Shown here piece by piece: positions 2,415 to 60,492 of a DNA stretch of 64,000 bases. The notes under the pieces are model-generated. The model did not search any database and had not been told where the DNA came from. It saw only the letters and a program-made list of their open reading frames with translations. Position numbers and translations under genes: made by a program. Where the stretch lies: IMG/VR virus record IMGVR_UViG_3300037067_007193, positions 11,589-75,588 of that record; one strand, written 5' to 3'. The stretch comes from a virus. Taxonomy: Duplodnaviria > Caudoviricetes. Positions within the stretch are counted from its first letter, which is position 1. Each line of letters opens with the position of its first letter.

Positions 2415-2735
2415 TATAAAGCATTTAAAGCTTTATATATTATATATACCCTAAGATATATAAGGTTTTTAAAAGCCTTTAAGTCTTTAAAGCCTTTAAA
2501 AGCCTTTATATATATACCTACTCTTAGAATATTATAAGCCTTTGTTCTTTGTCTTTAATAAAGAAAGACTTTATTATGATTAATAAACTTACAAGAAATA
2601 CCATTAATAAAGACAATGGTCTTTTAAATAATAAAGAGGATATTAAAGAAAAGAATAAGAATATTAATACTCTTAATAAAGATAATAATATTAATATTAC
2701 TAAAGAGAATAAGAATATTAATGTTGTTAAAGAGA
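2415..2735. repeat. AT-rich short-repeat region upstream of and inside terS
   Basis: AAGCCTTT at 2473, 2490, 2500, 2536 plus variants; GAATAAGAATATTAAT at 2653 and 2707. Confidence 0.7.
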
Positions 2736-3364
2736 ATAATAAAGTTATTGGTACGCCTTTAAATAATCCGTTCTATGAAGCCTTCTGTTTAATATATTCT
2801 AAGACTCTTAATAAAACCAGTTCTTATCTTCAAGCAAGAAAAGCAATTAAAGGCGATTCCATTACCGATGAAAGCGCATGTACTTCTGCTATCCGATTGT
2901 TAGAAGATGAAAGTATAAGAACAAGGCTTGCAGAACTGTTTGACCATACAGCAAATAGCTTGCAGATAAACAAGACTGAAATCCTGGAAGGTATACAACA
3001 CGAATTAGAGCTTGATCCGGCGACGGTGTTGGAATGGCAAGGCGATGCGCTGAAAATAAAAAGCCTTGAATCGATCCCGCTGCATATCCGGCGCACGATC
3101 AAGAGTATGAAACAGGCTAAGGACGGCAGTATTGAAGTGCAGTTCTACGACAAGCAGCGCGCCCGTGAACAGCTTATGCGCTTCTTGGGCATGTTATCCG
3201 ACAAGCTGGACATTAATGTGACGCATGACATCGGAAATACCTTGGCGGAGGCTCATACACGCTATTTGAGGACTGCCAGAAGCGGCGAGGTTCAGGCCCC
3301 CGAAGGTATTCAGGACGTAGAATATACAGAAATCAAGCCAGACGGCGGGAATGGAACGCATTAG
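2576..3364 (+). CDS. terS: terminase small subunit with Asn/Lys-rich N-terminal extension
   Basis: FCLIY..LNKTSSY..A...SAIRLLED.SIRTRL helical pattern and IEVQFYDKQRAREQLMRFLGM C-terminus, both typical of TerS. Confidence 0.75.
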   Translation: MINKLTRNTINKDNGLLNNKEDIKEKNKNINTLNKDNNINITKENKNINVVKENNKVIGTPLNNPFYEAFCLIYSKTLNKTSSYLQARKAIKGDSITDESACTSAIRLLEDESIRTRLAELFDHTANSLQINKTEILEGIQHELELDPATVLEWQGDALKIKSLESIPLHIRRTIKSMKQAKDGSIEVQFYDKQRAREQLMRFLGMLSDKLDINVTHDIGNTLAEAHTRYLRTARSGEVQAPEGIQDVEYTEIKPDGGNGTH

Positions 3365-4485: not shown

Positions 4486-4734
4486 ATGAAACGTGAATCC
4501 ATATTGGGGTTTTTGGGTGAATTGACGGAACTAACCAAGAAGTACCGGATAGCCGTTTCTTCTTCTCCGGATAGTGACTATCCCCTTTTGGTGGACCCGA
4601 CTGACGAGGAGACGTTGTGGGCCATAGACATGGATACGTTTAGGTGTGCGAAGTACGTTATTGCCAATGGGGATGATGTTGATGTGGAGGATCAATGGTT
4701 GATTAGGTTCCGTCTTGCGGCTGACGAAGAGTAA
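4486..4734 (+). CDS. hypothetical protein
   Basis: 82 aa, GGAG RBS. Confidence 0.55.
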   Translation: MKRESILGFLGELTELTKKYRIAVSSSPDSDYPLLVDPTDEETLWAIDMDTFRCAKYVIANGDDVDVEDQWLIRFRLAADEE

Positions 4735-4745
4735 GGAGTTTTGCC

Positions 4746-4910
4746 ATGCCAAGGAGCTTTAGATTGTACCGGTGTGGCACGCCGAAGGGGTTTCGGGATC
4801 GGATGGCTACATGGATAAGGATAACCAGAAACGCCATCCGCTCTGGTCTGGCTGATGAGGGCGGTTTGTTAATGCTAAGAATCGTCGCTTCATCCATTCC
4901 GGGGAAGTAG
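4746..4910 (+). CDS. hypothetical protein (54 aa)
   Basis: Not in ORF track. AAGGAG RBS, MPRSFRLYRCGTPKG... Confidence 0.4.
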   Translation: MPRSFRLYRCGTPKGFRDRMATWIRITRNAIRSGLADEGGLLMLRIVASSIPGK

Positions 4911-5138
4911 ATGGGTGATTTTAACTTTCAAACAGGACAAGAGGATGCCTTTATCTCTTTATAGGAGGCTCGTGGCTGAACGATCTTTGTTCGGGCAGGA
5001 AAAGATACGTGATTTTAGAGATCGTTGCCCAGAATTGAGCTAATGCGTTCAGGTGTTCAGAAACTTTTGCATTGTAGTGGGAAGGAAGAGGGTATTTAAT
5101 CTTCAGCCTCAGTTTGGGATAGTGTTGAGGGGTAATAT

Positions 5139-5156
5139 TTGTATATTTTGATACAA
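5139..5156. promoter_or_regulatory. dyad, candidate enhancer for a sigma54 activator
   Basis: TTGTAT-N6-ATACAA (contains TGT-N10-ACA), about 65 bp upstream of the -24 box. Confidence 0.4.
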
Positions 5157-5218
5157 TATCTGCGAATTGTGATGGTGGGTGTGTTTTGAAATGAACAAAT
5201 AAGCGCAATGGCGTCTTC

Positions 5219-5234
5219 TGGCACGTTAAATGCT
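5219..5234 (+). promoter_or_regulatory. sigma54 (-24/-12) promoter
   Basis: TGGCACG-TTAA-ATGCT; GG-N10-GC spacing exact; one mismatch to TGGCACG-N4-TTGCW. Confidence 0.65.
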
Positions 5235-5355
5235 TGGGTATAAGCGGGGTTTTATACCTTTCTGCGTTTAAAACGTGAAAACCGGGGGATGCTTATGGGA
5301 AAATAAACCTGGACATTCTTGGTTTTTAGTTAAAGACAACGCGGGAGATGTAGAA

Positions 5356-6012
5356 ATGGCTGGACATCCAGGGAATCGCGGATTTACGCTGATAGAGATT
5401 ATCGTTGCGGTGGCGCTGGTGGCGATATTATCGGCGGCTGTGGCTCCGGGTGTGTTAAATAACATAGCCCAGGGGCGGTTTGCGAGGGCGCAGAGTGATG
5501 TTCAGATATTGGCGAGTGCGATAATGCGGTTCAAGTCGGATACGGGGGTATTCCCCCGGTGTGCGAAGGCGGCAAACCCCGATACTGCGGGGAACAAGTT
5601 TGATTTTCTGGCAAGCCGGGGCGGTGATTTCCCAAAGATGGGGTCCGGAAGCGACTGGTCCAGCGCGGCTTTCACCAATGGGACGGTGGCTCCTGGAAGT
5701 GTGGAGGATTTCACCAACCACCTGATTAACGGATCGAGCCGCACCACGACATCGGACAGTCTGTATACAAGAGCGCCACAGGTCGAAGACCCCGGCAGTT
5801 TTGGTTTCCGTGGCGGGATTGTCAGTTCCGACCCTCCCGATCCGTGGGGCCACAAGTACATCTGCAACGTGGCGGCATTGGGGGAACCGGGTCAAGCGGT
5901 ATGGGTTATCTCTGCCGGGCCGGATGGAGTAATAAGCACGCCGGTGGCTGACACCGGATTCGGCGCATCGGATGTACTTGGGAGTGACGATATAGGTTTC
6001 AGAATTCAGTAG
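5356..6012 (+). CDS. type IV pilin / GspG-like major pseudopilin
   Basis: MAGHPGNRG/FTLIEIIVAVALVAILSAAVAP class III signal with Glu+5; C-terminal DPWGHKY...VISAGPDG as in GspG-type pseudopilins. Confidence 0.85.
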   Translation: MAGHPGNRGFTLIEIIVAVALVAILSAAVAPGVLNNIAQGRFARAQSDVQILASAIMRFKSDTGVFPRCAKAANPDTAGNKFDFLASRGGDFPKMGSGSDWSSAAFTNGTVAPGSVEDFTNHLINGSSRTTTSDSLYTRAPQVEDPGSFGFRGGIVSSDPPDPWGHKYICNVAALGEPGQAVWVISAGPDGVISTPVADTGFGASDVLGSDDIGFRIQ

Positions 6013-6047
6013 TGTGTGATATGACACATGGATGTGTGTGAAATAAC

Positions 6048-6082
6048 CCACGTTCCCCGTCTTTATCGGGCGGGGAACGTGG
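6048..6082. terminator. strong hairpin after the pilin gene (possible terminator)
   Basis: CCACGTTCCCCG/CGGGGAACGTGG perfect 12-bp stem; no clear U tract. Confidence 0.5.
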
Positions 6083-6377
6083 AATAAAAAGACAAACAGA
6101 TGCTTTTATCCTGATAGCGGGACGCTTAGGTGGTGAAGATAGATAGGCAAAAACGTGACGATTGTGGCTTACGGGCTATGCGCCTGTACTTCAAGATGAG
6201 GGAAGAATTTTTGATGATGATTTTTCCGGTTATCCAAGAGATGAATACGAGAGAGACTTGAATGAATTGGGGCGTCTGTGTGGAACAGTAAGGAAGGCGA
6301 TGAAGAAAAAACGATCCGCATGATTTTATCCGGATACAAGGGCGATAAAACAAAGAGACGCGGGGTTACACTTCACA

Positions 6378-6731
6378 ATGGAACGCATGAAGTGGCTGTT
6401 GAAAGAGATTGACGACCTGTACAAGAGCAAGCCGAACGGCGATTACACTGAGTCTGAGTTGCGCCGGGTGGTAGCCTTGGTGATGAAGATGCTACGCCGC
6501 AACGAGTATAAGCGGCTGATTTTCATACGTGGTGAGCGCGGGGATCGCGCCGAGACGAGATATATGTTTTGTTGTGAACTTGGTAGCAAGTTGGGCTGGC
6601 TGGAAGCCAAGATGCGAGAGAAGGGCATCACCAGCACGAAAAAGGATGCTTACGCGGAGAAGAATTTCAGGCGGTTCATGGCTTACGGAGAAGCCTACCG
6701 TCAAAAATCGGGTGGTCAACCCACCATATAG
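6378..6731 (+). CDS. hypothetical protein
   Basis: 117-aa ORF in the rightward run. Confidence 0.55.
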   Translation: MERMKWLLKEIDDLYKSKPNGDYTESELRRVVALVMKMLRRNEYKRLIFIRGERGDRAETRYMFCCELGSKLGWLEAKMREKGITSTKKDAYAEKNFRRFMAYGEAYRQKSGGQPTI

Positions 6732-8080: not shown

Positions 8081-8614
8081 ATGACAGCGATAGTGGGCAT
8101 AGCGAAAGATGGCAAGGTCTGGATGGGCGCGGATAGCCAAATAAACTACGGCAATCTAAAAATGCCGCTGGCGGAAAACAAGATTTTTCTGAATGGGCCA
8201 GTTCTTTGTGGATGTGCCGGGGATTACAGATTTACAAACATCGTTCAACACAACTTCAAAGCCCCTATAATTAATAAGTTTGAAGACGCATTTGAATACA
8301 TGGTTAAAATATTTATACCGGTATTGAGAGAAACAATAAAAGAAAGCGGTTGGATGAAGATTGAAAACAACAGAGAAGAGGCTGGACATCTTTTGGTTGG
8401 TGTAAAAGGGCGACTGTTTGAGATTTGTGACGATTTTTCCGTCACTGAAGTGTTATGTGAATATAACGCCATCGGCTCTGGTAGTAATTATATGTTAGGC
8501 TCTTTGTACAACTCCGCCGCAGAAGAACCGGAACAAAGAATTTTGCGTGCGCTTGCAACGGCGGCAGCCTTTGATTCCAATTCCGCCCCGCCTTTTGTGG
8601 TGAAGTCGATATGA
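8081..8614 (+). CDS. Ntn-hydrolase, HslV/proteasome beta-like peptidase
   Basis: M-T-AIVG start (Thr nucleophile), GADSQ, KIF, G.AGD, AIGSGS motifs. Confidence 0.8.
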   Translation: MTAIVGIAKDGKVWMGADSQINYGNLKMPLAENKIFLNGPVLCGCAGDYRFTNIVQHNFKAPIINKFEDAFEYMVKIFIPVLRETIKESGWMKIENNREEAGHLLVGVKGRLFEICDDFSVTEVLCEYNAIGSGSNYMLGSLYNSAAEEPEQRILRALATAAAFDSNSAPPFVVKSI

Positions 8615-12151: not shown

Positions 12152-13369
12152 ATGTCTGACTATACCGGCAGACCGCTTGTGTGTGTGGATTTTGACGGCA
12201 CAATAGCCAAGTATGACGGTTGGAAGGGCGTTGACAACTTCGGAGAACCAATTCCCGGAGCGCGTGAAGGATTGAACTGGCTGCGGGATAAAGGTTTCCA
12301 GATATGCGTCTGGACAACGCGGGGGAACAAGGACAAGATATGGGACTGGTTGGAAGACAATCAAATGCCCTTTGACTATATCAATGATGCCCCCGTGTTC
12401 GATCACCAGAACCCCGGCAAGCCACCGGCCAAGTATTTCATAGACGACCGGGCCGTCAGGTTTGAGGGGAGTTGGCTGCGCGTTAGGCGACAGATTGAAG
12501 AACTGGAAGAGATAGAACACACGCGGAATGGGGCGGCATACCACAACGGCATCGGCAAATCTGCAATCGGAATGCAAGATAGCCCGGATTCTAAACCGGC
12601 GTATCATTTTGCCGACTCCAGCAAAATGATAAAACCGGAAAACCATTTCGTTGACGCCGACAAAAAGGTCAGGTGTCCATCATGTCTCGAACCAATCAAC
12701 CCCAAACCCGCAAGAGATCAAGTCGGAGTTTTGTCCGCAACGTGCCGTGATTGCAAGATAGAAATCAGGTTTGGCGGTGATGGTCATTCTGTTGACGCCA
12801 CCGATATGATCCCCAAGTTTCGCGGAGTCTGTTTGTCGGGCAAGGCCCGGTCTGGTAAAGACTTGATATGTAAGATGTTGATAGACCGTCTTGGTGGTGA
12901 CTGGCATAGAGAAGCTCTGGCCGATGCACTGAAGGTGACATATTTTGATCTGATGATGTCAGAAAACATTATCGGGAGAAGTATACCGGAATACCAAAAG
13001 GTCATTTTAATCGACGAGCAAAAATCGTTTAGTCCACAGATCAGGGACGCCCTCATTTCGCTTGGAAAACGGCATCGCTCGGAAGATAAGGACTACTGGA
13101 TAAAACGGCTTCCGAACAAAGACCATGCCATAGTAACTGATTGCAGGTTTTTAAACGAACTGCAATTTTTCAAGGATAACGGTTATCTGACCGTCCGCCT
13201 TGAATGTACGGCAGAGACTTTGATTGCGCGTGGTCAGCCGCCGATAAACGACCCGAGCGAGACGGAACTGGATGGTCGGGATGACTTCGATGTTGTCATG
13301 GCAAACAACGCTGGTCTCGCAGTGCTTGAGAAGGCCGTGGATGAGATAGTTACTGCGCTTCGCTCTTGA
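12152..13369 (+). CDS. HAD-family phosphatase - Zn ribbon - dNMP-kinase-like fusion
   Basis: DFDGT and K..A.YFIDDRA (HAD); CPSC/CRDC; SGKARSGKD P-loop, ADALK, TDCRFLNE, SETELD. Confidence 0.8.
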   Translation: MSDYTGRPLVCVDFDGTIAKYDGWKGVDNFGEPIPGAREGLNWLRDKGFQICVWTTRGNKDKIWDWLEDNQMPFDYINDAPVFDHQNPGKPPAKYFIDDRAVRFEGSWLRVRRQIEELEEIEHTRNGAAYHNGIGKSAIGMQDSPDSKPAYHFADSSKMIKPENHFVDADKKVRCPSCLEPINPKPARDQVGVLSATCRDCKIEIRFGGDGHSVDATDMIPKFRGVCLSGKARSGKDLICKMLIDRLGGDWHREALADALKVTYFDLMMSENIIGRSIPEYQKVILIDEQKSFSPQIRDALISLGKRHRSEDKDYWIKRLPNKDHAIVTDCRFLNELQFFKDNGYLTVRLECTAETLIARGQPPINDPSETELDGRDDFDVVMANNAGLAVLEKAVDEIVTALRS

Positions 13370-15316: not shown

Positions 15317-16816
15317 ATGGCATTTCAGGCAACGAGAGCGGATGACGAACTCGTAAAGTATCTGGCTCAGTTCTGCGAAGACCCGCTTGGCTTTGTCATG
15401 GCTGTATATCCGTGGCAGAAACAAGGGACGCTATTAGAAAACGAAACCGGCCCCGATACGTGGCAGGCTGAATATCTGACAGAACTTGGGAAGCAAATCA
15501 AAGAATGTCACGAGGGCAAGCGCGAGATAGTTCAGATAGCCACCGCCAGCGGTCATGGGCCGGGCAAAACTTGTCTTGTGGCGTGGATAATTCATTGGTT
15601 TGAAAGCACTTACCCGGACGCCCACCTTAACGTTACCGCCAATACCCAAGCGCAGTTGTCCGACAAGACGTGGCGCGAGTTGGCAAAGTGGAAAGCCCTT
15701 GCGATAAATGGACACCATTTTGAATGGACGGCAACATCGTATCGGTTTCTTGGCAGAAAAGAAACTCAATATGCGATGGCGATTCCGTGGTCAGAGCATA
15801 ATTCCGAAGCCATAGCCGGTCTGCATGAGAAATATGTAGGGGTAATTTTCGATGAAGCGAGTGGAATTGCCAACATAATTTGGGAAGCTATATCCGGGGC
15901 GATGACCACTCCGGGCGCGATATGGCTGGTATTCGGCAACATGACCCGCGCATCAGGTAGATTTTTTGATTGCTTCCACAAAGAACGGCATCGCTGGAAG
16001 ACGTTCTCGGTTGATTCTCGTACCGCGAAAAAAGCCAACAAGAAACTATTCCAGCAGTGGATTGATGACTACGGGATTGACAGCGATTATGTCCGGGTGC
16101 GCGTTCGCGGACTTCCTCCAAAACAGGCTTCTCTACAGTTCATTGCGACAAACACAGTTGAAGATGCCCTCAGGCGAGAAATATCCCCCGACACCTACCG
16201 ACACGCGGCAAAAATTCTTTCGGTCGATGTGGCGCGGTACGGGGATGATTCCACCGTATTCACGCTGCGTCAGGGATTGAAACTGTTCTGGAAGAAGAAG
16301 TATCGCGGCCTGAACACGATGGAAGTGGCGCAACTGACGGCGAGATTTGAAGACGAGGAAGAGCCGGATGCTGTATTTGTTGATGTTGTCGGTATTGGCG
16401 CTGGTGTAGTTGATCGGGGTAGGCAACTCGGCAGGCAATGGCAAGAACACAACGGGGCGCACTCGTCATCGGATAAGCAGTTCGCAAATAAGAGGGCGCA
16501 GTGTTGGGGAGAAATGCGGTGGTGGCTCGAAAAGGCGGACATGAGTGCAATCCCGCAAGAACAGCGTCAGGAATTGATAGATGACCTCACCGGAATAGAA
16601 TATTCGTATGACCGCGTAGACAGACTCATCCTTGAGAAAAAAGAAGATATGAAGGCGCGTGGATTGGCCTCCCCCGACAACGCCGACTCTCTGGCCATCT
16701 CGTTTACACAGAAGGTTATTCCCCGCCAGATGATCCAAGACGAGTATGACTACCAAGAACATGAAAGGGCGACACGCAAGGCAGACTCTTCTCGTAACCC
16801 GATAACCGGATATTAA
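15317..16816 (+). CDS. terL: terminase large subunit
   Basis: Walker A SGHGPGKT, Walker B VIFDEAS, nuclease motifs DVARYGDD and SPDNADSL. Confidence 0.92.
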   Translation: MAFQATRADDELVKYLAQFCEDPLGFVMAVYPWQKQGTLLENETGPDTWQAEYLTELGKQIKECHEGKREIVQIATASGHGPGKTCLVAWIIHWFESTYPDAHLNVTANTQAQLSDKTWRELAKWKALAINGHHFEWTATSYRFLGRKETQYAMAIPWSEHNSEAIAGLHEKYVGVIFDEASGIANIIWEAISGAMTTPGAIWLVFGNMTRASGRFFDCFHKERHRWKTFSVDSRTAKKANKKLFQQWIDDYGIDSDYVRVRVRGLPPKQASLQFIATNTVEDALRREISPDTYRHAAKILSVDVARYGDDSTVFTLRQGLKLFWKKKYRGLNTMEVAQLTARFEDEEEPDAVFVDVVGIGAGVVDRGRQLGRQWQEHNGAHSSSDKQFANKRAQCWGEMRWWLEKADMSAIPQEQRQELIDDLTGIEYSYDRVDRLILEKKEDMKARGLASPDNADSLAISFTQKVIPRQMIQDEYDYQEHERATRKADSSRNPITGY

Positions 16817-16846: not shown

Positions 16847-18886
16847 GTGGAGATTTACGCAATGGCAATGGAAGTTGCAAATCCCGAAAAAGTAAAACGC
16901 AACAAGGGTGTAAAGAAACTTCTCGATTTCATCGGTGAACTGAACATAGCCGACAAGTTCAACGATGTAGACGGGCAGCGCGAGTTGGATGAGATCGGGC
17001 ATCTTGTCTGTGACGAGTTCAAGATAGACAAGGAAAGCCGCAAGGATTGGGAAACTCAGATGGAAATAGCGGACAAACTTGTCCGTCTGTTGGCTGAGAG
17101 AAAGACTTTCCCGTGGGACGGGGCCAGCAATGCCATCTATCCCCTAATGGCACAGGCGGCGATACAGTTCAACTCCCGCAGCCTGCCCCTGATGACAAAA
17201 GCGCAACGCGCTACGAAGTGCCGTGTCAACGGTCCCGACCCACAAGGCATCAAGGCAAAAATAGCCGATCTTGTTGGTGAACACATGAGTTGGCAGTTAC
17301 TTGACGAGATGGATGACTGGCTTGGCGAACAGGACTCCATGCTTCTGGCGCTGCCGATCATGGGTTGCGCCTTCAAGAAGGTGTACCGCGACATCCCGAA
17401 CCAGCGCAATGCCTCTGAATACTATTCCCCGATGGACATAGTAATAAACTACAAAGCCCGGAACATGCAGTCGGCAAAGCGTATCACGCACGTGTTCGAG
17501 TTGTCCAAGCGCGAGATAGTGGAGCGCCAGCGTGCGGGGATTTTCCTTGAGATAGACTTGGGGCATGGAGACCAGAAGGCCGAGACGGGTGACATCAAAG
17601 AACAAGACCCGTCATTCGTTCTTCTGGAACAGCACCGTTGGCTTGACTTGGATGATGACGGTCTGGATGAGCCATACATCGTGACCGTTCACCAGGATTC
17701 TGAAAAGGTTCTGCGCATCCGCCCGCGCTATGATGAGCGCGGAATCGTCCTGACAGCGGATGAGAAGCGCATAGCCAGAATAAAGCCAATTCAGTTTTTC
17801 GTGCGGTATCTGTTTATGCCATCCCCGGACAGGAACATCTATGGCTACGGCTTCGGGCAACTACTTCTGCATCCGAGCGTCCTGATTAACAGTATCATCA
17901 ACCAGACGATAGATGCCGGGACGTGGTACAACACGAACGCCGGATTCGTGTCGCGTGATTTAGGGGCCGGGCGCGGTTTGGTGACATTCCAGCCGAATGA
18001 GAAGAAAGTAGTCGATTCGGTCGATGACATCAACAAGAAGATATTCATGCTTCCGGCCCGCGAACCGAGTCAGACTTTGTTCAGTGTTCTTGGGCTTCTG
18101 CTTGAGGCGTCTGAGCGGCTTGGAAACAGCGTGGATGTCCTGACCGGAGAACACAGCACATCCAACCAGCCCGCCAGCACGACACTCGCCCTGATCGAAC
18201 AGGGGTTAAAGTTCTACAAGGCGGCGATCGGAAGACTGTTCAAGGGCTTGAAAGACGAGTTCAAGTTGCTGTTCGACCTGAATGCCCGGTATATGTCCGC
18301 GACCGAGGAACAGTTCTTCCGCTTGTTTGAGACGGAGGACAGAACCATATCCGGCGCGGCGTACAACACCGAATCGCTGGACGTGGTTCCGGTGAGTGCG
18401 AACGAGGAAGTAACTGTTGTCGAGAAACTGATAAAGGCGGAACAGTTGCAGCAGTGGTCGGCGCAGCGCGGCTTCCCGTGGCAAGTTCAGAGGAACATAG
18501 ACCTCCGCTATCTTGAGGCGTTGGGACAGGAAGACATTGACGCAATACTTCCTCCACCCGATTGGCAACCACCGACAGACCCGAAGGTTGAACTGGACAG
18601 AATGAAACTTGAACTGGATGCCAAGAAGTTGAAGAACGAAGACATGAAGATGGGTATGGAGTTGCAGAAGCTTCCTCTGGAACTGATGAAACTGAAACTT
18701 GAGTTGCTGGAAAAGAAGGAAGGCATCAAGGACAAGGCACTCAAGGCGCAGGTGGATGCCGCAGCGAAAATCGCGGATTCGGACACAAAGAGAAAGAAGG
18801 TTGAAGTTCAGGATAAGATGGCAGATAACCAGGTCAAGATTGCGGCAAGCAAGCCGAAACCCAAAGCGACGGGAGCGAAGAAATGA
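16847..18886 (+). CDS. portal protein
   Basis: 679 aa directly after TerL, helical, coiled-coil C-terminal barrel as in P22/N4-type portals. Confidence 0.8.
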   Translation: MEIYAMAMEVANPEKVKRNKGVKKLLDFIGELNIADKFNDVDGQRELDEIGHLVCDEFKIDKESRKDWETQMEIADKLVRLLAERKTFPWDGASNAIYPLMAQAAIQFNSRSLPLMTKAQRATKCRVNGPDPQGIKAKIADLVGEHMSWQLLDEMDDWLGEQDSMLLALPIMGCAFKKVYRDIPNQRNASEYYSPMDIVINYKARNMQSAKRITHVFELSKREIVERQRAGIFLEIDLGHGDQKAETGDIKEQDPSFVLLEQHRWLDLDDDGLDEPYIVTVHQDSEKVLRIRPRYDERGIVLTADEKRIARIKPIQFFVRYLFMPSPDRNIYGYGFGQLLLHPSVLINSIINQTIDAGTWYNTNAGFVSRDLGAGRGLVTFQPNEKKVVDSVDDINKKIFMLPAREPSQTLFSVLGLLLEASERLGNSVDVLTGEHSTSNQPASTTLALIEQGLKFYKAAIGRLFKGLKDEFKLLFDLNARYMSATEEQFFRLFETEDRTISGAAYNTESLDVVPVSANEEVTVVEKLIKAEQLQQWSAQRGFPWQVQRNIDLRYLEALGQEDIDAILPPPDWQPPTDPKVELDRMKLELDAKKLKNEDMKMGMELQKLPLELMKLKLELLEKKEGIKDKALKAQVDAAAKIADSDTKRKKVEVQDKMADNQVKIAASKPKPKATGAKK

Positions 18887-58984: not shown

Positions 58985-59182
58985 CTACTCCTCCTTTGCC
59001 TGGGCGGGAAAAGCATTCAACTCGGGGTGCTTCGAAATCGCTGCGCCCACCCACTGACCGACCTTGCTGTCTATCCACTCCTGTTTTACTTCTTCTGGTG
59101 GATTCAGCCAGAACCGCTTTGATTCAGCGCACCACAATTCCTCTGCCGCTTCTCGTAGCGCGGCTTCCATAAGAGTCTTCAT
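58985..59182 (-). CDS. hypothetical protein
   Basis: ATGA overlap with the integrase stop. Confidence 0.55.
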   Translation of the reverse strand: MKTLMEAALREAAEELWCAESKRFWLNPPEEVKQEWIDSKVGQWVGAAISKHPELNAFPAQAKEE

Positions 59183-60492
59183 CCTATCCTCGTTTGTCTC
59201 TCCGCTATCCCTCGGCAGTCACCTTGCGAGAGGTAGTGGTGTTGAGTAGTTGAAAAATCCTCGTGCCCCATTCCATTTTGTAGCTCAAGAGCATCTGCAC
59301 CCTCAGAGCGAATGTTTGCAGCATACACCCGGCGCAGATCGTGGAAACACATAGGAACTTTCTGTCCTGCTTGAATTGCTGTCAAGCCAAGAGCTTCAAC
59401 CGCAGCCTCGAAACCGGTCAACTTGGTATGCCCATCCAGGCGTTTCCCGAACCTGGACACGAACATCGGGCCTTCCTCTCTGTCCCCGATGTTTCTGACA
59501 AGTATCTCCGTTGCGTGCGGGCTGACTACCACAGTCTGATGCTTGCCCCCTTTTCTGCGGATAGTCACCCGGCTGAACACCCGGCACTGAATGTCCTTCG
59601 GAAGAACTTGAACATCCTCACAGCGCAGGCTGAATATCTCGTCCTTCCTCAGTCCGGTGTAGATGCCGAACATAACCATGTCCCGGTGCAGCTTGTTCCC
59701 GATTGCGTTCACGAGCGTCGTCTGTTCATCGCGGCTCAGGGATATTTCCCGCTTGTTGTCCTTCTTGGGCATGTCCATCTTGCCCTTGAGCGGATTAGTT
59801 TCGAGAAGCCCATCCTTGAGCGCTTGAGACAGCATTGCGCGGATCAGGTTTATCTCGGTGCAGATCGAGCTTGCGCTTGCCCCCTGCTGCTGCCGTCTGT
59901 AGACATAGGCGTCTATCGTGTACGGCTGGAGCAGTGACATTGGGCACCCTATCATTTCGGTGGACTCACCGATATGTTTCCAAGAGCATTCATAGCTGGC
60001 CCGCGTGTTCGTAGATACTTTTTTGCCGTGCCGGTCGAGGAACTTCAACCAGTACATCGAAAGCGTGACCGCCTGAGACTTAGCCTTCTCCTGCTTAACA
60101 AGTAATTCAAGTTTGGGATCGCGGCCCTCCTTTACACAACTCCACGTGAAATCGGAATGCTGTTTGGCTGCATCGTATCCGTCAAACTGTGCGCGCCTCC
60201 GCACGCCCATGAAGCGATAATCCACAACCCACTTTCCGTGTCTGTTCCGCTTTGGCTCCGGGTAACGCTCCATAACACCCTCCATGCCGCCGCGCACTTC
60301 CCGCGACTTCAACTTGTCACGGCGGCCTGAGAGTGTCAAGCATGACGCCTGATTTATTCGCCACTTGCGATATGTCCCGGACGGGTTTACATCCCGGCAT
60401 TCAAGCAAGCCATCCTGAACCATGCGGAAAAGTGACTGCTTCCCCACGCTCAGGGTTTCGCACGCCTGCTTGACTGTAAGCCAGTGAGACAT
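59179..60492 (-). CDS. int: tyrosine integrase with in-frame N-terminal excisionase-like HTH
   Basis: TGLRKDE, HDLRR, MGHEDFSTTQHHY; N-terminal WLTVKQACETLSVGKQSLFRMVQDG. Confidence 0.88.
   Translation of the reverse strand: MSHWLTVKQACETLSVGKQSLFRMVQDGLLECRDVNPSGTYRKWRINQASCLTLSGRRDKLKSREVRGGMEGVMERYPEPKRNRHGKWVVDYRFMGVRRRAQFDGYDAAKQHSDFTWSCVKEGRDPKLELLVKQEKAKSQAVTLSMYWLKFLDRHGKKVSTNTRASYECSWKHIGESTEMIGCPMSLLQPYTIDAYVYRRQQQGASASSICTEINLIRAMLSQALKDGLLETNPLKGKMDMPKKDNKREISLSRDEQTTLVNAIGNKLHRDMVMFGIYTGLRKDEIFSLRCEDVQVLPKDIQCRVFSRVTIRRKGGKHQTVVVSPHATEILVRNIGDREEGPMFVSRFGKRLDGHTKLTGFEAAVEALGLTAIQAGQKVPMCFHDLRRVYAANIRSEGADALELQNGMGHEDFSTTQHHYLSQGDCRGIAERQTRIG

Follow-up and report, generated by a model that had tools for sequence, protein, structure and literature searches.

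A stand-alone GspG-type pilin cassette of host lineage, with a sigma-54-type promoter and host-type dyads, in a tailed-phage genome

How a pilin gene comes to lie among the genes of a tailed phage, by which means it would be expressed, and of what use it could be to a virus that carries no filament machinery are the questions raised by a locus in the IMG/VR virus record IMGVR_UViG_3300037067_007193. The stretch analysed here (the window, 64,000 nucleotides) comprises bases 11589-75588 of this 75,588-bp record, the completeness of which is ~90 % (CheckV). Positions 4911-6082 of the window hold a cassette consisting of a non-coding gap with a sigma-54-type -24/-12 element, a prepilin gene and a hairpin. 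The pilin belongs to a lineage of cellular pilins, its promoter element is conserved in the corresponding cellular loci, and the three sites of the phage genome most similar to the putative activator sites of those loci all reside within the cassette. We consider the cassette to be, most likely, a lysogenic-conversion moron: a major (pseudo)pilin of host lineage that has been placed in the pilin regulon of the host and depends on host parts for its function.

The prepilin gene (5356-6012, + strand) codes for 218 aa, comprising a 9-aa leader (5356-5382), a G/FTLIE cleavage site and a GspG-type globular head. The longest open reading frame (ORF) extends over 5275-6012 and opens at GTG 5275; ATG 5356 was nevertheless assigned as start, because the alignment with 45 relatives and a Shine-Dalgarno sequence (GGGAG, 5343-5347, + strand, 8 nt ahead of the ATG) agree on it. 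The resulting N-terminus, MAGHPGNRG/FTLIEIIVAVALV, displays the features of a class III signal peptide. A first-pass annotation, made from the sequence without database searches, had described a stand-alone gene with such a signal and a GspG-like C-terminus, and profile searches bear this out: PF07963 (N_methyl) matches with 33 bits (cut-off 21.2), TIGR02532 with 31.9 bits (cut-off 16.3) and the Pfam family T2SSG with 30 bits (cut-off 21). The GspG equivalog TIGR01710 scores 54.3 bits, under its cut-off of 88.85, and an insert of ~80 aa relative to GspG forms the variable part of this pilin family. An AlphaFold2 model computed from the family alignment reached a mean predicted local distance difference test score (pLDDT) of 92.8. 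The globular part of this model is predicted to resemble EpsG/GspG/PulG (3fu1, 3g20, 3gn9, 1t92, 4lw9; Z 8.7-9.1), superposing on these major pseudopilins of type II secretion systems (T2SS) with a root-mean-square deviation of 2.3-2.6 Å over ~102 of 112 residues, while type IV pilins gave Z values of 3.5-4.3. The gene stands alone in the phage as well as in the hosts, and in neither is it part of a canonical Gsp operon (GspC-M plus secretin). The observation that the window holds no other pilus or T2SS genes can be extended to the whole 75.6-kb contig: neither a further N_methyl gene nor genes for T2SSE, T2SSF, a prepilin peptidase (Peptidase_A24) or a sigma-54 activator were detected in it.

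About 48 relatives with 46-74 % identity were retrieved in a search of 5.8 billion proteins, and those bearing names are labelled Candidatus Glassbacteria, Gemmatimonadota or Gemmatimonadales. Their surroundings are plainly cellular in the seven contexts looked up and in seven loci from reference genomes. In a maximum-likelihood tree the phage pilin is nested in a clade of cellular pilins (support 98/97), in agreement with the proposed capture from a host, and its branch length is ordinary (0.33 versus a median of 0.24). At the DNA level the gene is at most 64.7 % identical to the closest known copy, and its GC content at third codon positions is 0.61, compared with 0.73-0.82 in the nearest host genes. 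Since the DNA has diverged this far and the third-position GC has drifted from host values towards the GC of the phage, the capture appears to be old and the gene to have been held intact; long residence with a maintained reading frame is thus suggested. Close and profile searches of GenBank phages and IMG/VR yielded no further phage copy. The likely hosts are members of the uncultured class Glassbacteria within the Gemmatimonadota.

Conservation of the protein is pronounced. The phage pilin retains 46 of the 47 host-invariant columns and 30 of the 31 columns conserved to at least 90 % (76/78 together), including G-1, F+1 and E+5. The two changes, S32G at a host-invariant residue and A51I, both fall in the assembly helix, and the leader is 3 aa longer than those of the host pilins. 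Identity to host pilins amounts to 44-48 of 53 residues in the assembly helix and to 29-57 of 83 in the variable insert, so distributed as are the differences among host pilins themselves.

The closest relative of the phage pilin, P0003 (73 % identity), is encoded on a 2.55-kb contig with a GC content of 0.44 (L020:1-2550, pilin at 1667-2311). Its surroundings consist of tightly packed small ORFs without family, PHROG or IMG/VR matches, and the start of the pilin gene overlaps the preceding ORF. This may be another pilin carried by a phage or mobile element, expressed as part of an operon or under control of a different kind.

In the host genomes the pilin is likewise a stand-alone gene, located next to glycosyltransferase and polysaccharide genes, and in several loci it lies ~2.5 kb from a T2SSE-T2SSF-pseudopilin-PilM cluster. 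Such glycan-synthesis genes together with an uncharacterised type IV filament system were delimited at L005:7342-20642, L003:7400-20651 and L002:13271-18590. The filament cluster encodes a PilB/GspE-like ATPase with an MshE-type cyclic di-GMP domain, a GspF/PilC platform protein, a PilM-like protein (544 aa) and a 586-aa GspG-like pseudopilin with 'choice-of-anchor Z' repeats. All cluster proteins remain under the equivalog cut-offs; the score of the ATPase is intermediate between PilB and GspE and reaches neither threshold. In flanks of 10 kb around the host pilins a secretin was not detected. Genes for RpoN and the prepilin peptidase (A24) were present in 5 of the 5 host genomes sampled, and one host genome contains 29 matches to the Sigma54_activat domain. 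The same host system also includes a 787-aa tetratricopeptide repeat protein with a weak PrsT-like match.

The gene is preceded by a non-coding regulatory gap of 445 bp (4911-5355), given as ~440 bp in the first-pass annotation. Its GC content is 0.41, the ORFs within it are small and unsupported (42 aa on the + strand, 85 and 42 aa on the - strand), and Rfam returned no match across 4700-6400. The motif pointed out earlier as a sigma-54-type promoter is present as described: TGGCACGTTAAATGCT occupies 5219-5234 (+ strand), with GG at 5220-5221 and GC at 5232-5233, and ends 122 nt ahead of the ATG, which places the predicted transcription start near 5245. It agrees with TGGCAC-N5-TTGCW at 11 of the 12 specified positions and is the sole match with at most one mismatch in the window; between 4900 and 6700, on both strands, it is also the only credible GG-N10-GC site. 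A scan for sigma-70 promoters found none on the + strand of the gap.

Comparison with the hosts carries this assignment. All 11 readable host loci (a twelfth, N-masked at the promoter position, was left out) contain GGTAY-N5-TTGC 87-113 nt before the pilin ATG, at the position to which the phage element aligns, and most of the further metagenome host loci carry it too. The conservation at the orthologous position validates the phage element as of sigma-54 type, and a host-type sigma-54 control of the cassette is supported by this comparison. The 5' leader of the phage gene is ~25-45 nt longer than those of the hosts; because short stretches of it are common to the phage and host locus L002, common descent is indicated rather than convergence. 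A -24/-12 matrix built solely from host sites ranks the phage element 11th, a consequence of the hosts using GGTAC/TTGC and the phage GGCAC/ATGC; this ranking was set aside, as the higher-ranked sites lack the -12 GC. A supposed second, decayed promoter at ~6165-6182, ~146 bp past the dyads behind the gene, was likewise discarded on account of its GG-GC spacing of 14 instead of 12 and its poor alignment.

Upstream of their promoters the host loci possess TGTG-N8-CACA dyads, singly or in pairs with a frequent distance of 32 bp, whose centres lie 114-200 bp ahead of the -24 GG. Every exact TGTG-N8-CACA in 171 kb of host loci sits in this position relative to a pilin promoter. Judged by distance and pairing, the geometry of these putative activator sites is of the bacterial enhancer type. 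When 13 class genomes (G001-G013) were scanned for a composite pattern (TGTG-N8-CACA, 100-160 nt, GGTAY-N5-TTGC), 8 of them gave 10 matches in total (loci L037-L046), all 250-300 bp upstream of pilins of this family, compared with 0 for the reversed control. The regulator is apparently dedicated to these pilins, since the composite signature was found only upstream of them. Two pilin loci with the signature occur in genome G004. Another host locus (L019:2337-3825) holds two tandem pilin paralogues (235 and 242 aa), 52 bp apart, behind a single upstream activating sequence (UAS) and sigma-54 promoter.

In the phage, sites of this type are found in other places. A matrix constructed from 17 host sites was scored over 75,573 positions of the phage genome, and the top three scores all fell in the pilin cassette, within 600 bp. 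Rank 1 is TGTGTGATATGACACA (6013-6028, + strand), whose score of 25.0 bits is on a par with the best sites of the hosts; it begins 1 nt after the pilin stop and aligns with the host UAS dyads, and no other exact TGTG-N8-CACA occurs in the window. Rank 2 (19.2 bits; 6035-6050, + strand) is situated 22 bp after it, deviates by one core mismatch and overlaps the foot of the hairpin. Rank 3 (17.2 bits; 5451-5466, + strand) is intragenic, within codons for V-L-N-N-I. For 75.6 kb of random sequence of the same composition, the expected number of sites with at least 17.2 bits is 0.05. Only the phage gene has the intragenic site: the matching codons of 12 host genes score at most -4.8, and no position in host coding sequences exceeds 4.1 bits. 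It is perhaps partly fortuitous, because ATA and TTA codons are common in the ameliorated gene. Relative to the phage promoter the three dyads are found at about +240, +800 and +820. An origin of the two 3' dyads from a tandem donor was considered and rejected, as the gap between the L019 pilins measures only 52 bp and contains no second UAS.

The perfect dyad TTGTAT-N6-ATACAA at 5139-5156 (+ strand), which had been put forward as the candidate enhancer, exists exactly as described and does not qualify as a host-type site. It shares the TGT-N10-ACA frame with the host sites and has A/T for G/C at the inner position; on the host matrix its score of 4.0 bits gives it rank 44 among the positions of the phage genome, and it is absent from all host loci fetched. 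Of the host-type regulation proposed for the captured pilin, the sigma-54 element is thus retained and this dyad is not, its place being taken by the host-type dyads at 5451, 6013 and 6035. Relative to the host motif both half-sites are changed symmetrically (TGTGT/ACACA to TGTAT/ATACA). As neutral decay rarely gives symmetric changes, 5139-5156 is perhaps the site of a different dimeric regulator, of phage or host.

A hairpin of 15 pairs, 12 of them perfect as noted before, follows the gene (6048-6082, + strand; -38 kcal/mol, fold z -6.2). No U-tract comes after it and the terminator scan does not list it, so that we describe it as a terminator-like structure that presumably closes the cassette. 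Host pilin genes end in hairpin-plus-T-run terminators in 12 of 12 cases examined, ~35 nt or less from the stop. With a promoter (5219-5234) and hairpin of its own, and a GC content of the gene of 0.57 versus 0.50 in the phage genome, the cassette has the characteristics of a moron.

We propose that sigma-54 RNA polymerase of the host binds the -24/-12 element at 5219-5234, and that the host's pilin-specific activator, most likely an enhancer-binding protein, occupies the TGTG-N8-CACA dyads and, through a DNA loop, activates the promoter. The phage dyads would act from downstream of the promoter, as in rocG of Bacillus subtilis, where according to a later paper citing the original work an enhancer is located 1.5 kb downstream of a sigma-54 promoter, beyond the gene (Belitsky and Sonenshein 1999, cited in PMC3844500). 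Common to rocG, as portrayed there, and the cassette is a sigma-54 promoter with activator sites past the 3' end of the gene; the function at rocG is proven over 1.5 kb, whereas that of the phage sites, at ~0.24 and ~0.8 kb, is read from sequence. The prepilin would be cut by the prepilin peptidase of the host and polymerised by its PilB/GspE-PilC/GspF-PilM-type machine, so that, at the times when the host produces its own pilin, a filament of mixed composition or with a new coat would arise. Such a filament would present a changed surface and would no longer be recognised by phages using it as receptor.

The likeliest benefit, argued from the analogy with P-FimU and P-PilA, is superinfection exclusion, the filament being masked as a receptor for other phages; as a second possibility, the lysogen may adhere differently. 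Phage-encoded P-FimU is reported to become part of the pilus and to obstruct phages that attach to it (Sztanko et al., Cell Rep 2026, PMC12952977), and P-PilA proteins of Xylella prophages are ~50 % identical to host PilA (PMC12952977). The phage pilin compares with these as a phage copy of a host pilus-fibre protein that relies on the host machine; it is encoded in a phage record and at most 74 % identical to cellular pilins. It differs in that a GspG-type pilin of an uncharacterised Glassbacteria filament system takes the place of proteobacterial type IVa pilus (T4aP) PilA/FimU and is known from its sequence, and in that host activator sites and a sigma-54 promoter accompany it, neither of which comes up in the passages of PMC12952977 consulted.

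Several observations weigh against this proposal. The sigma-54 motif taken by itself is within chance, 2.27 such sites being expected per 64-kb window, which by arithmetic corresponds to ~0.008 for the gap on the + strand. The dyads may not activate the phage promoter, because they are not in the canonical upstream position, and their TGTG-N8-CACA form also resembles CRP-family sites. No gene for an enhancer-binding protein is present within 10 kb of the host pilins. The sister pilin of L020 possesses neither a sigma-54 promoter nor dyads, so that mobile copies need not be controlled by sigma-54. Finally, the pilin cassette is the sole ground for the probable host assignment: comparison of the portal protein and 20 kb of phage DNA with the 13 genomes of the class revealed neither prophage nor spacer, the DNA giving chance-level matches of 26-48 nt with no CRISPR repeats nearby.

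Among the rival explanations, one is attractive yet in our view unlikely: the displaced sites would serve as a decoy or switch. The dyads would soak up the host activator, more so once the phage DNA replicates, and the phage pilin would replace that of the host: expression of the host pilin falls, while the phage promoter, nearest to bound activator, stays on. That the top three sites of the genome lie within 600 bp and none of them canonically upstream speaks for it, as does the restriction of the intragenic site to the phage copy, and titration would be specific because the activator seems to serve only pilin genes in the host genomes. Three sites per genome would, however, make a weak sponge in a single-copy prophage, a downstream enhancer of the rocG kind is the simpler explanation, and the frequency of ATA/TTA codons may partly account for the intragenic site. 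In a more elaborate form, judged to be just as unlikely, the decoy is combined with an enhancer hijack: consensus activator sites were relocated by the phage into the gene and to its 3' side, a stronger -24 element was retained, the promoter of the host pilin is deprived of its activator, and the entire filament takes on the surface variant of the phage. To our knowledge, such a regulatory receptor replacement has not been described for any phage.

A dominant-negative pilin, which would enter the machine, block filament growth and so exclude pilus-dependent phages, is decidedly improbable. Truncated phage PilA proteins are proposed to act in this way in PMC12952977, and the leader longer by 3 aa as well as S32G and A51I in the assembly helix would suit such a part. 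The present protein is full-length, with an ordinary branch length and a confidently predicted GspG-like fold, and retention of 76 of the 78 conserved host columns, G-1, F+1 and E+5 among them, renders a poisoning role less likely. Still less credence is given to a neutral or decaying passenger, acquired by illegitimate recombination together with leftover, scrambled regulatory pieces and of no benefit to the phage. The order of elements is indeed scrambled relative to the hosts, with dyads behind the gene, and the pilin family was found in no other IMG/VR or GenBank phage. Yet frame, conserved residues, promoter core and three near-consensus dyads have persisted through divergence to 64.7 % DNA identity and a shift of codon usage towards the phage, and neutral DNA would not keep these features during amelioration. 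We regard as least probable, and as barely credible, that the dyads are CRP-family or other sites for a protein that is not an enhancer-binding protein, acting in repression or insulation, and that phage promoters drive most of the transcription of the cassette in the course of infection. Its orientation matches that of the flanking phage genes and the dyads overlap the CRP-type consensus, but the host dyads, 114-200 bp upstream of a sigma-54 promoter and often paired 32 bp apart, have enhancer geometry and are too distant for classical CRP activation, and the gap is devoid of a + strand promoter in the sigma-70 scan.

The lysogenic-conversion moron remains the preferred explanation. Control by sigma-54 and PilR-type regulators is known for the major pilin genes (pilA) of Pseudomonas, Myxococcus and Geobacter, and the layout of the host loci is similar: a monocistronic major pilin, a -24/-12 promoter, upstream activator sites and a separate terminator. 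It differs in that the putative activator is not encoded beside the pilin, and the phage in that its sites are downstream of the promoter. The TGTG-N8-CACA dyad itself corresponds to the NifA-like TGT-N10-ACA form. With GspG (EpsG, PulG) the phage pilin shares the T2SSG domain, a DPWG-x-x-Y motif and the predicted fold; it differs by its length (218 versus ~140 aa), the 80-aa variable insert and a score below the TIGR01710 cut-off. Phage-borne pilins and sigma-54 pilin promoters as such are thus already known, whereas the host lineage, the GspG-type subunit, the pilin-specific regulatory signature of the class and the downstream and intragenic placement of sites are new.

The cassette provides a link, on sequence grounds, between a phage and the uncultured class Glassbacteria, for which the TGTG-N8-CACA dyads and GGTAY-N5-TTGC together define a pilin-specific sigma-54 signature. 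The recently described re-coating of receptor filaments by phages, a concept based on proteobacterial T4aP, would be carried over to another phylum and to a filament system of GspG type. Should the activator sites within and behind the gene prove functional, they would add to the few natural examples of downstream enhancers in bacteria, and the cassette as a whole offers a testable model for the way in which a phage connects a captured gene to a host regulon.

The remainder of the contig is that of a tailed phage with a GC content of 0.50, in which head-closure and tail-fibre proteins are also recognisable. The pilin gene is placed between the genes for the terminase small subunit (TerS, 2549-3364, + strand) and the terminase large subunit (TerL, 15317-16816, ~40 % identity to annotated TerL proteins), the latter being followed by the portal gene (16847-18886), and the cassette has the same orientation as its phage neighbours. 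The phage is probably temperate, as it encodes a tyrosine integrase of 437 aa (59179-60492, - strand). A second, short tyrosine-recombinase gene (~177-182 aa) is located ahead of the window, at 6106-6564 of the contig (- strand). TerS carries an N/K-rich low-complexity N-terminal extension of ~75 aa, situated in a local GC dip (0.41). An ORF of 177 aa (8081-8614, + strand) shows a borderline match to the Pfam Proteasome-subunit family (22.6 bits, cut-off 22.4) and may code for an HslV/proteasome-like protease. The 405-aa product of another ORF (12152-13369, + strand) is phosphoheptose-isomerase-like in its N-terminal part (phrog_1238) and deoxynucleoside-monophosphate-kinase-like in its C-terminal part (phrog_139), and looks like a fusion of the two.

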